Assembly (NCBI GenBank): GCA_918797485.1
Contig: CAKKNE010000003.1
Coordinates: forward strand, 3,038,001-3,102,000
Source: Pelagomonas calceolata
Lineage: Eukaryota
DNA: 64,000 nucleotides
Direction of reading: 5' to 3'
Position numbers and translations under genes: made by a program. The number at the start of each line of letters is the position of its first letter. The stretch's first letter is position 1. Shown piece after piece: positions 8,217-11,460 of this stretch. A model generated the notes under the pieces. The model was not told the DNA's origin. It did no database searches and saw nothing but the letters and a program-made list of their open reading frames with translations.

Positions 8217-8848
8217 TGCATTTTGCTTGAGGTGGGGGGACGCCAGCTTGCTTTTTTGGTGGATCCGGTCGCACCAGGATTTTGGCAGGAATGTGAATGT
8301 GATGCGTCAGGCTGTTTACTTTTTGGTGTGTAGCAGTGAGAGCATGCTCTTTGTCTGCTTACTTCACAGGCCGCTAGGGAGGGAGCCCCTTGGGTTTTCT
8401 AAGAGGGCAACGAGAAGCTTCCAACCCCCACGGACACGGCTCTGTGCATTTCCCACCCCGCGGCCCGGGCCGAGGCCGCGCCGACGACGAGCGAGCCGCG
8501 GACCACGCGGTCGGAATTTCTCGCCCGCGATACGCCTCCGACGCGCTGCGGTGGACGAGGGTGGCGGGGTTTCAGGGGTCGGTCGGGGTGTTGTTGTATA
8601 AACGCGGGTCAGTCGGACCTTGCGTATGTTGGAAGGGAGTATGGGGCAACAGGCTTCGCGAAGCATGGCTCTGAGCTGCCTCGGGTGGCTTTCCGAGGTC
8701 TGACGATGTCGCGGGCGCGGCTGTGGGGCGGGCAACACAAGCCGTGTTAACTCACGGGTTTTCCTTTGCTTTCCTACTAGTCCATCATTTTTGTCCTCTT
8801 GATCCCTCCAGATGTCGGTGAATGCTCGCAGACATCGGTTGAACATGT

Positions 8849-8950
8849 GCTTGGGTGGTCTAGTTGGTTATGACGTCCTACCTAGTGCTAAACTGGGTAC
8901 GTCCTTGCTTCACACGCAGAAGGTCGCGAGTTCGAGTCTCGCCTCGAGTA
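8849..8950 (+). tRNA. tRNA-Val(CAC) with a non-canonical 28-nt intron at 28/29 (8878-8905)
   Basis: Acceptor stem GCTTGGG/CTCGAGT+A. D-arm GTCT-AGTTGGTTA-TGAC. The anticodon stem TCTGC/GCAGA forms only after intron removal, with loop TT-CAC-AC. T-arm GCGAG-TTCGAGT-CTCGC. Poly-T terminator follows. Confidence 0.92.
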
Positions 8951-8952
8951 CA

Positions 8953-8967
8953 TTTTTTTTTTTTTTT
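8953..8967 (+). terminator. Pol III poly-T terminator of tRNA-Val
   Basis: T-run immediately after the discriminator base. Confidence 0.8.
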
Positions 8968-9111
8968 CTACCCCCCCTATGCCCTAAGGCGCCGCAACGC
9001 GCTTTTTGGGTCTTTTTTGCAAGAAAAATTTTTATAAAATCCTCTGTTTTGCCCTTCGCCGGCCTCCAAATCCCTGCAAAGTGCAAAGGGGGGGGTGCTG
9101 GCTTCAAAAAT

Positions 9112-9121
9112 AAAAAAAAAA
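9112..9121 (-). terminator. Pol III poly-T terminator of tRNA-Ala
   Basis: A-run on the + strand just downstream of the minus-strand tRNA 3' end. Confidence 0.8.
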
Positions 9122-9122
9122 T

Positions 9123-9242
9123 TGGAGATAATACTGATTTATGCATATTTCGCATATAGAATCGAACTCATGACCTCCCGCATGCTAAGCAGGCGCTTGC
9201 GATTCCGTTGTTGTACGGATCTACCAACTGAGCTATATCCCC
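9123..9242 (-). tRNA. tRNA-Ala(AGC) with two non-canonical introns: 22/23 (9198-9220, 23 nt) and 62/63 (9134-9157, 24 nt)
   Basis: Mature sequence GGGGATA TA GCTC AGTTGGTA G|AGC G CCTGC TT-AGC-AT GCGGG AGGTC ATGAG TTCGATT CT|TAT TATCTCC A: a 73-nt cloverleaf with the G3:U70 Ala identity pair. Confidence 0.92.
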
Positions 9243-9449
9243 AAGGCTGCGAGAAAGACCGAGCTTTGCAATTTAAAGTCTATAATAGAAAAACCCGTTT
9301 TGGGATTGAGGTGCGTGCGTCCGTTTTTTTGCGCCCGTCGCACCGCCTCCGGCCCTCGGCCTCTCGCCGGGGCGAGTCTCCCGCCAGTGCAGCAGCCCCC
9401 GGAACACCACGCGAAGAGGAACCACCCAACAGCAACACCGCAAAAAAAA

Positions 9450-11460
9450 ATGCTGGTTGTCCTAAGAACCGCAAGGCCGCTCGTGCCGCGCGGGACGCAG
9501 CGCCGCCTCCTCAGCGTGAGCGTCGGCGCCGTCGCGGGCGGCTGCGCCATGACGAGGGCGAGCCGCGCGCGCCTGCTCGAGGCCGCGCCGCCGCCGCCGC
9601 CGGCGACCGCGATTCTCGCGCAGCGGCGCCGCGCGGGCGCCGACCTCGACGACGACGCCAACGTCCTGCAGCACCTCGCGCGGGCGTGCTTCCGGCTCGC
9701 GCGCATCGTCGAGACGTCGATCCGGCTCGGCGCGCTCGCGACGCCGCTCGTGCTCGCGGTTCGCGGGACTGTGTGGAAATCAAGCTTCACGATGTTGTCT
9801 CCGTAGCTGCGTCTGCTCGATGGCGTGGAGTTTCTACGCCATCGCGGCGACGTTGTTCTCGTCACAACCTCGATGGCGTTGAAGTCCGCAAAGTCCGCGA
9901 AGTTTCGACGTCTCGCGGCGATGGCGTCACCCGCCGACGCGAGAGAAATGAACAAAACACCGCGCGCAGGCCCCCCTCCGCCGCTTCGACGAGGACCGCT
10001 GGTGGCGCTACTGCCTCTGGGCGACGCGCGCGGCGGGGCCGACGGCCGTCAAGCTCGCGCAGTGGGCCTCGTCGCGCGAGGACCGCTTCCCGCGCGCGTT
10101 CTGCGACCGCTTCGCCCATTTGCAAGACCGGGCGCCGGCGCACGCGTGGCGCGACACGGAGCGCGCCCTCGAGGCGTCGCTCGGCCCCGACTGGCGCGAC
10201 GTGCTCGACGTCGACGCGGCGCCCGTCGGCACGGGCTGCGTCGCCCAGGTGCACTCGGCGGTCCGAGGCGGCGTCTTGTTTTTTGGGGTCGTGCAAGCGG
10301 TAGAGACGACGACGCACGCGACAGAGAGCCGACAACAACACCGGCGCAGGTCCTCAAGAAAGACGTAACAAACGGCGGCCGCCGGGGCGACCGCGTCGCC
10401 GTCAAGGTCGTGCACCCGGCGGCGCGGCGGCGCGTCGCCTCGGACCTCGACTTCCTGCGGGCCTGCGCGCGCGCGGGCGAGGCGCTCATCCCGCGCGCCA
10501 AGTGGTTCAACCTCGCGGCGGCGGCGGACGAGTTCGCGGCGACGCTCGGCGCGCAGATGGACATGCGCGCGGCGCGCGGCCGGCGTCCGGAGACGCGTTT
10601 GCTGGTTGTTGCGGGGGGAGCCACGCGTCGACGGCGTCGCGGGGGGAGCCACGCGTCGAAGACTTCGAGAGAAACCACAAAGCACCGCGACACGCGATCA
10701 ACCAACGCAGGAGGCCGACAACCTCGAGCGCTTGCGAGAAAACTTCCGGAACCAGAGCAGCGTGAGCTTCCCGGCGCCGCGGCGAGCATTGGTGAGCGAG
10801 GACGTATTGGTAGAGGACTTTGTGGAGGGGCCGTCGATGCGCGAGTACCTCAAGCGCGACGTCGACGACGCGCGGCGCAAGGCTTTGGCTCGGGTGGGCG
10901 TCGACGCGGTCTGCAAGATGATCTTCCACGACAATTTATTGCACGGCGACCTGCACCCGGGCAACATCCTCGTGACGCGCGACGCGACGCGCGACCCGGC
11001 GGTCTGTTTTTTGGACGCGGGCATCTGCGTCGAGCTCGGCGCGAAGGAGCACGTCCACCTCGTGCGCGTGCTCTCCGCGCTCATGCGCCACGACGGCGAC
11101 GCCGCGGGGCGGCTCCTCTGCAAGGGCATGGACGGCGCGCGCGCGTTGAACAACGGCTTCGGCACGGACGAGGCCTGGCAGCGGGCCCAGGATTCTTTTT
11201 GTGAGTGCATGCGGGACATCACGTCCCGGAGCGTCGAGGAGGAGTTCTTCAACAAGTACTCGGAGTACGCGTCGCGCATCTTCGCCGAGGCCGAGAAGTG
11301 CCGCGTGGCCCTCGAGGGCTTCTTCGTGTCGACGGCCGTGGCCATCCGGGTCATGGAGGGCGTCGCCAACGCCCTGGACCCCGACGTGCCGATCGGGCAG
11401 CTCGCGCTGAAGTGGATCGCGTCCTCGCCGTACGTCGCGGCGGGGCTGACGCGGTCCTGA
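9450..11460 (+). CDS. ABC1/UbiB (ADCK2-like) atypical kinase, probably mitochondrial. Introns 9759-9969, 10261-10349 and 10572-10710 (GC donor).
   Basis: GPTAVKLAQWASSR, HLQDRAPAH, VGTGCVAQVH, VAVKVVHP, MDMRA|EADNL, DNLLHGDLHPGNIL and FLDAGI. Confidence 0.9.
9769..9969. mobile_element. Degenerate introner (one TIR retained) inside the 211-nt intron 9759-9969
   Basis: CTGTGTGGAAATCAA at 9769. The internal GATGTTGTCTCCGTAGCTGCGTCTGCTCGATGGCGTGGAGTTT is the reverse complement of a segment of IE-3 (about 20437-20479). The right TIR and TSD are lost. Confidence 0.8.

Follow-up and report, generated by a model that had tools for sequence, protein, structure and literature searches.

Can a tRNA gene that is interrupted twice, each time within a stem of the cloverleaf, still give rise to a mature tRNA, and what would remove the interruptions? 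The tRNA-Ala(AGC) gene described here raises this question. Introns at positions 22/23 and 62/63 are confirmed as a real feature of this gene. In our judgement it is highly probable that the gene is a transcribed, apparently single-copy nuclear gene, the inserts of which are likely removed by a tRNA splicing endonuclease that reads a local bulge-helix motif and not the tRNA body, the exons then likely being joined by a tRNA ligase.

The window and its host lineage

The window, i.e. the whole 64-kb stretch of DNA that was analysed, is gene-dense eukaryotic nuclear DNA with Pfam matches to Nup96, Brix, SNF2 and Josephin (43 of 77 long ORFs scanned), and it is matched in sequencing runs of one cultured organism and in marine metagenomes. 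Among the matches listed, the best named relative of the PheRS encoded in the window comes from Pelagophyceae sp. CCMP2097 (70%). A midpoint-rooted phylogenetic tree of this one gene, without bootstrap, was built from the window protein together with 54 matches (P0026-P0070 and later named ones) out of the 120 listed. In it the window protein belongs to a clade of 22 rows that includes CCMP2097 and Chrysophaeum taylorii and is separate from Dictyocha and diatoms (SH-aLRT 99). The assignment to pelagophytes made in the first-pass annotation, which was derived from the letters of this DNA, is thus supported by one gene tree.

Reconstruction of the tRNA-Ala(AGC) gene

Among 8,460 two-deletion products of the precursor, scored on the cloverleaf only, 2 reach 21/21 stem pairs and 12/12 invariant bases, and both represent one and the same mature sequence, differing only by a slide of the first insert between 22/23 and 23/24. 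The 23/24 register was discarded, as the HBh' motif (described below) is lost there and 22/23 alone fits. The spliced 73-nt product is called as tRNA-Ala(AGC) by ARAGORN. Cloverleaf search and ARAGORN therefore bear out what the first-pass annotation had put forward, namely the coordinates on the minus strand (table 1), two introns of 23 and 24 nt, a 73-nt cloverleaf and the G3:U70 pair; the layout it gave for both introns, consisting of 1 nt, a hairpin, 4 nt and 2 nt, is also found. Its expectation that standard annotation would miss the gene proved right, since on unspliced DNA ARAGORN in its default mode reports 0 genes for the window, its intron mode leaves the Ala gene uncalled and Rfam gives 0 matches within 8500-9900.

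Table 1. Features of the two disrupted tRNA genes, given as positions in the window
Feature	Position	Strand	Description
tRNA-Val(CAC) exon 1	8849..8877	+	positions 1-28, with 20a
Val intron	8878..8905	+	28 nt, position 28/29, 5' strand of the anticodon stem; HBh'
tRNA-Val(CAC) exon 2	8906..8950	+	positions 29-73
T15 run 3' of the Val gene	8953..8967	+	likely Val terminator; on the minus strand an A-run, at which oligo-dT could pick up read-through RNA from the Ala gene
T10 run directly 3' of the Ala gene	9112..9121	-	likely Pol III terminator; captured transcripts read through
Ala exon 3	9123..9133	-	11 nt, positions 63-73; CCA end not encoded
Ala intron 2	9134..9157	-	24 nt, position 62/63, 3' strand of the T-stem; HBh'
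Ala exon 2	9158..9197	-	40 nt, positions 23-62; carries the anticodon arm (AGC) and the entire B box
Ala intron 1	9198..9220	-	23 nt, position 22/23, 3' strand of the D-stem; HBh' register
tRNA-Ala(AGC) exon 1	9221..9242	-	22 nt, positions 1-22; contains the entire A box; RNA coverage stops here
A+T-rich TATA-like stretch	9268..9290	-	putative; ~26-48 nt 5' of the Ala gene; Val without an equivalent upstream

Both the A box (8-19) and the B box (52-62) of the Ala gene are uninterrupted in the sequence, as had been claimed. The idea that the introns avoid the two boxes was considered as well and is not significant, the arrangement having a chance of ~0.35 with n=3. The ends of the two Ala inserts and the one Val insert (AT..CA, AT..AG and CT..CT; lengths 23-28 nt) are neither GT-AG nor AT-AC and there is no ribozyme core, which sets these inserts apart from spliceosomal, group I and group II introns. 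A flanking direct repeat is absent at both Ala inserts.

The neighbouring tRNA-Val(CAC) gene

One of the 6 B-box scan matches in the window belongs to a tRNA-Val(CAC) gene at 8849-8950, which lies 170 nt downstream of the Ala gene in convergent orientation, is mis-called as Thr by the intron mode of ARAGORN and went unnoticed in the first-pass annotation. This gene carries a single insert, flanked by a 7-nt direct repeat (8873-8879 and 8899-8905) that creates a second valid motif register. The alternative, 26 nt at 8879-8904, is compatible with HBh' as well, at the cost of 2 surplus bases; the 28-nt register is preferred because it yields a tRNA of 74 nt whose anticodon stem has 5 bp. RNA from the Val gene is limited to a contig of depth 2.5 and to depth <=1 in one library, which is too thin to choose the register or to show transcription. 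A record of run X15 (record 6) that matches 8906-8941 with 6 differences in 36 positions was set aside as evidence for Val and probably represents another tRNA. The acceptor stem of this tRNA contains three G-U pairs, including G1-U72.

The bulge-helix motif at the three inserts

The HBh' motif consists of a 4-bp central helix, a 3-nt bulge at the 5' splice site and a helix within the intron, and it is found in full at Ala intron 2 and at the Val intron. In Ala intron 2 all four central pairs (4/4) are Watson-Crick pairs with T-loop positions 57-60 and the hairpin has 5-6 bp; the motif has an energy of -5.3 kcal/mol, and the probability of the central helix, 0.41-0.44 in the precursor, rises to 0.54-0.57 once intron 1 is removed. 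The Val intron combines 4/4 Watson-Crick central pairs with an 8-bp hairpin (-14.1 kcal/mol; central-helix probability 0.55-0.56). Ala intron 1 forms a 5-bp hairpin, a central helix of four pairs that includes two G-U pairs, and possibly an exonic helix of 2 bp. Its motif reaches -5.5 kcal/mol in isolation, and the ensemble probability of its central helix is 0.01-0.02 in the full precursor and 0.01-0.05 across the modelled contexts; as modelled, these low values would speak against a stable motif at this intron. The exonic outer helix measures 2 bp at Ala intron 1, where it raises the energy of the motif, 0 bp at Ala intron 2 and 1 bp at the Val intron, and the strict hBHBh' form, in which an exonic helix closes a second 3-nt bulge, is absent from all three inserts. 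Thus, the two-intron reading and the HBh' geometry that were originally proposed hold, with a weak central helix at intron 1.

How often such a motif arises by chance was estimated from shuffled introns. With composition-matched shuffling the motif is reached in 7 of 200,000 sequences for Ala intron 1 (p 4e-5) and in 26 of 200,000 for Ala intron 2 (p 1e-4). For the Val intron the corresponding number is 2 of 200,000 shuffled sequences, or 13 of 200,000 when the hairpin threshold is set to 5 bp.

Because all three inserts break a stem, the Ala and Val precursors cannot fold as cloverleaves, an enzyme of the ruler type is unlikely to place the cuts, and splicing is obligatory. In the pathway that we propose, Pol III would transcribe the Ala gene through its intact A and B boxes, and each insert would then fold into the HBh' motif, the 3' end of the intron being paired with the D-loop (positions 17-20) or the T-loop and a 3-nt bulge being left at the 5' site. 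An archaeal-like TSEN, possibly an (alpha-beta)2 enzyme, would cleave these sites independently of the tRNA body, ligation would produce the mature tRNA, and editing of A34 to I34 would enable it to read GCU and GCC. Intron 2, which has the stronger motif, would probably be cut first. The codon GCC accounts for 200 of the 4,292 codons in six ORFs (GTG for 93 of 4,292). To our knowledge, Ala(GGC) is generally absent from eukaryotes and, considering that GCC codons are used, Ala(IGC) is needed.

It is also conceivable that the inserts are real introns that are removed in some other way, either by another endonuclease or by the ordinary heterotetramer aided by a refolding factor, and that the motif is incidental, at least at intron 1. 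Such removal would agree with the weak central helix of intron 1 and with the lack of a strict second bulge with exonic helix at Ala intron 2 and the Val intron; moreover, most introns of the Guillardia theta nucleomorph are described as unable to form a BHB (PMC3728597), yet some of them are proven to be excised (PMC4090602). We nevertheless regard this explanation as unlikely, given that the exact 1-nt offset and the 4+2 register are repeated in three of three inserts, each with a chance of ~1e-4 to 1e-5, and that the same register is the geometry described for HBh' substrates (PMC4090602, PMC3239211).

Transcription of the precursor and the exon-2 cycle

Raw reads of four poly(A) libraries, all from one sample, were analysed over the region 8700-9500, with 6-12% of each library sampled, and 17, 21, 8 and 18 reads align to this region (64 in total). 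In 4/4 libraries the reads over the Ala gene are oriented opposite to the reads of the plus-strand ABC1 gene and therefore originate from the tRNA strand. Read depth is 2-5.4 over 9105-9185 and drops to 0-0.11 in the bin 9240-9266, and reads continue past the T-run. An RNA contig from the same sample (X4) covers 8989-9241 in unspliced form. The unspliced Ala precursor is transcribed from about +1; its transcription is documented by stranded reads in one sample and by contigs in two studies. We infer that Ala transcripts were captured by oligo-dT at downstream A-runs. Length variants at 9111-9112 are present as A-run differences in X4, X22 and X24. No join of exons 1 and 2 or of exons 2 and 3 passed the threshold for listing among the 64 aligned raw reads, all of which come from poly(A) libraries, and none was found in the RNA contigs of X4 and X13.

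Signs of cleavage come from a 70-nt contig (record 3) of run X13, which belongs to a different study. This contig runs from 9186 to 9157 and then from 9196 to 9157 with 0 mismatches, its first 30 letters being identical to its last 30, as expected of a 40-nt cycle in a 31-mer graph, and it is a substring of exon 2 in tandem. The depth of the cycle is 12.9, versus 16.9 for the linear precursor. As positions 9197 and 9157 bear the same base, the cycle equals exon 2 exactly, give or take a slide of 1 nt. The contig is obtained from 2 of the 4,095 possible cycles (>=31 nt) of the precursor. Template switching is unlikely because the sequence shared at the joint is only 1 nt long. As indirect evidence, the cycle requires that intron 1 was cut at its 3' site and intron 2 at its 5' site and that ligation followed, and cleavage is in this way supported, within 1 nt, at two of the four Ala splice sites. 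The observation comprises one contig in one of the three RNA runs examined as contigs, X13 being RNA by presumption and having no DNA control of the same strain; the coverage gap upstream of 9197 in this run carries no evidential weight. A circle and a linear trans-joined duplicate both fit the contig. Most likely it represents a mis-ligation by-product, self-joined or trans-joined, of an exon that was freed at both ends. No report of circles of tRNA middle exons was found among the literature matches listed, as far as the available portions of these papers go.

Copy number was addressed in DNA run X1, where a single contig of 5,820 nt spans the stretch unbroken and is the sole match among 194,781 records at 80% likeness, a level that a strongly diverged copy would escape; X1 may be the source of the window. 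A similar intronless copy is unlikely, because the X1 contig would be interrupted by any copy having 31 nt in common with it and because a piece of only 25 nt was detectable in X15. The intronless Ala(AGC) gene that the first-pass annotation had proposed to look for elsewhere thus finds no counterpart in X1, a single DNA run.

Could this be a pseudogene of a tRNA that lost its function through two insertions of hairpins, which arose as transposon footprints or by slippage, with the RNA being an unprocessed dead transcript? On the one hand, linear RNA is seen only in unspliced form, insertions in the D- or T-arm of eukaryotic tRNA genes are usually read as signs of pseudogenes (Yoshihisa, PMC4090602), and the neighbouring Val insert is bounded by a 7-nt direct repeat. 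On the other hand, neither Ala insert has such a repeat around it, the exons retain every stem pair and every invariant base, X1 shows no other copy, and the exon-2 cycle demands cuts at both predicted inner sites. Taken together, this makes decay of the gene a very improbable explanation.

That the gene is an artefact of assembly or of reading, with tRNA-like pieces arranged by chance, is scarcely credible and can be regarded as refuted: HBh'-like motifs are indeed common in this GC-rich window (645 in a blind scan of both strands, ~5 per kb per strand), yet the 899 single and double splice products of that scan yield just three ARAGORN calls, namely Ala and, in two registers, Val, and no substitutions separate the locus from the X1 DNA contig or from the RNA contigs in X4 and X13. 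Both tRNA genes found in the window by the blind scan (2/2) are disrupted. On the minus strand, a 6-bp hairpin at 8805-8837, close upstream of Val, also qualifies as an HBh' motif, probably by chance at ~5 motifs per kb.

Comparison with known tRNA introns

In Cyanidioschyzon merolae (Soma et al. 2013, PMC3728597), nuclear tRNA genes may also carry two introns at sites other than 37/38, and 42 introns are distributed over 27 genes; five are located in the D-stem and one in the T-stem, and none is listed for the anticodon stem in the available portion of that paper. There, HBh' is among the motif types, intron lengths range over 11-69 nt, which includes the introns described here, position 22/23 is used in Phe(GAA) (counted here from the supplement), and the disrupted genes likewise escaped the first annotation (PMC3728597). 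C. merolae is a red alga, whereas the host here is a stramenopile, and the T-arm introns of C. merolae are at 51/52, 53/54 and 55/56, on the 5' side, where they split or abut the B box (counted here in 17 supplement genes, PMC3728597), whereas all three introns here spare both boxes and positions 62/63 and 28/29 are used. The same source describes C. merolae as lacking recognised box-binding TFIIIC subunits (PMC3728597). A T-stem intron as such is therefore less unusual than had been claimed, as 51/52 of C. merolae lies in the 5' strand of that stem; the part of the claim that stands concerns the 3' strand, since no printed report of an intron at 62/63 was found among the literature matches listed, position figures being outside that scope.

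Several other systems share some of these features. Chondrus crispus has non-canonical introns in nuclear tRNA genes, some with two introns, and splicing was demonstrated there by RT-PCR; this species is a red alga, and the introns are only at 20/21 and 58/59, in the D- and T-loops (PlantRNA 2.0, 10.1101/2021.12.21.473619). Two heterokonts are annotated in the same work and no such introns are reported for them in its main text (10.1101/2021.12.21.473619). In archaea (Thermoproteales, ARMAN-2) position-independent HBh' substrates and several introns per gene are described, with cleavage by (alpha-beta)2 or epsilon2 endonucleases (PMC4090602, PMC3239211). Position 22/23 is a listed archaeal intron position (PMC4090602); the archaeal positions named run from 3/4 to 59/60 'etc.' (PMC4090602, PMC3239211), and the full set may include 62/63 or 28/29. 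The Guillardia theta nucleomorph shares multiple introns in the D and T arms of eukaryote-type tRNA (Kawach et al. 2005, as cited), but it is a relict red-algal nucleus and its introns are 3-24 nt long and mostly without a BHB. An intron at 27/28 is known together with permuted tRNA genes in O. lucimarinus (PMC3978253).

The human-type TSEN has been described as limited to 37/38, with the non-Amorphea enzymes possibly having the (alpha-beta)2 form (PMC10485636). According to section 6 of this 2023 review, many non-Amorphea eukaryotes are proposed to possess an (alpha-beta)2 TSEN resembling that of archaea, by which non-canonical introns may be removed, the eukaryotic mode of tRNAscan would miss such genes, and red algae are the sole cases named there. 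A 2026 review leaves undecided whether the origin of these introns is ancestral, convergent or by transfer (PMC13578239, section 9), and its available portion contains 0 occurrences of 'pelagophy' or 'Aureococcus'. Among the literature matches listed, there is no report of disrupted nuclear tRNA genes in pelagophytes or of BHB-type introns in a stramenopile nucleus; the tRNA-intron literature in scope also included, in part, PMC4033280, PMC8450103 and PMC9602550. For the time being we regard such introns in the pelagophyte lineage, and position 62/63, as provisionally unreported. We read the locus as a known mechanism in a new supergroup, with an unlisted position and an exon cycle.

The alanine locus in a close relative

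A 276-nt contig of depth 5.9 from the metatranscriptome run X15 (record 8) matches 9343-9400 with 2 differences and one 8-nt insertion, which is a length variant at 9354. At a distance of 108 letters from this match it also matches 9158-9182 (1 difference), and its loose end runs directly into positions 63-73 (1 difference), with 62 and 63 adjacent. Judged from these matches, the contig would represent the syntenic Ala locus of a close relative without the 62/63 intron, in which the junction predicted for the spliced tRNA is present as contiguous sequence.

The arrangement of the two halves of this tRNA is unusual as well. Eight letters past the 3' half, with no T-run in between, an Ala 5' end starts; the acceptor strands of the two halves pair at 7/7 positions, and G5-C68 replaces A5-U68, which is compensatory if both halves belong to one tRNA. 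The match to the window stops at position 38, and the 108 letters are similar in length to the upstream gap in the window, which measures 100 nt. The simplest reading is that the Ala gene of the relative would be a type II gene, circularly permuted at 37/38; tandem genes with a canonical intron are a possible alternative. The permutation reading draws on 25 aligned and 30 loose letters of one partial contig, with the anticodon, the terminal BHB and the 108 upstream letters outside view, and short-sided joints in metagenomes often stem from other organisms. Type II (37/38) permuted genes are known from C. merolae, prasinophytes and the Bigelowiella nucleomorph, with published spacers of 1-74 nt (PMC3978253), and the contig of the relative would resemble them: its 3' half begins near position 38 and is followed by 8 nt of spacer lacking a T-run, after which a matching 5' half sets in. 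This likeness concerns the contig of the relative and not the window.

An intron-bearing orthologue was found in none of the metagenome, viral and prokaryote pattern scans, most patterns of which are blind to permuted genes, one viral and one prokaryote pattern being able to catch them. The metagenome pattern, Ala(AGC) with an insert of 11-41 nt between positions 19 and 30, has a sole match, the Ala(AGC)-like gene L019 7911-8009; it was ruled out, as it is on an A+T-rich contig, contains an internal duplication of the anticodon region, has no BLAST match to the window and is likely a pseudogene. One viral scan gave a single match, an intronless Ala gene in a viral tRNA cluster (L001), and the viral contigs L002-L018 carry an Ala(AGC)-type 5' half without a D-arm insert in 17/17 cases. 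Two further viral scans gave 0 and 0 matches, as did the prokaryote genome scans (0 and 0).

A switch from introns to permutation in a close relative is probable. A broader reading, which we offer tentatively and which in our view falls a little short of probable, is that pelagophytes, which are neither red nor green algae, would be a hot spot for BHB-disrupted tRNA genes in their own right among eukaryotes. Here TSEN would ignore the tRNA body, introns would occupy positions outside those known so far (62/63 being the first junction that lies 3' of the B box), middle exons would be circularised once freed, and the orthologous Ala locus would have switched between a two-intron and a permuted layout in close relatives. 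If this is true, intron gain and permutation would be observable at a short evolutionary distance in a cultured alga. A case from the host nucleus of a stramenopile bears on the proposal about TSEN types (PMC10485636) and on the question of intron origin (PMC13578239). The three inserts are substrates of natural origin that lend themselves to direct testing, and the organism has DNA and RNA runs of its own. Because 2/2 tRNA genes found in the 64-kb window are disrupted, the annotated tRNA set of the lineage is probably incomplete.

Another record of run X15 (record 7) matches, with 6 differences, 44 nt (9050-9093) of the region that separates the Ala and Val genes, the flanks of the record being unlike the window, and this stretch is possibly a conserved element.
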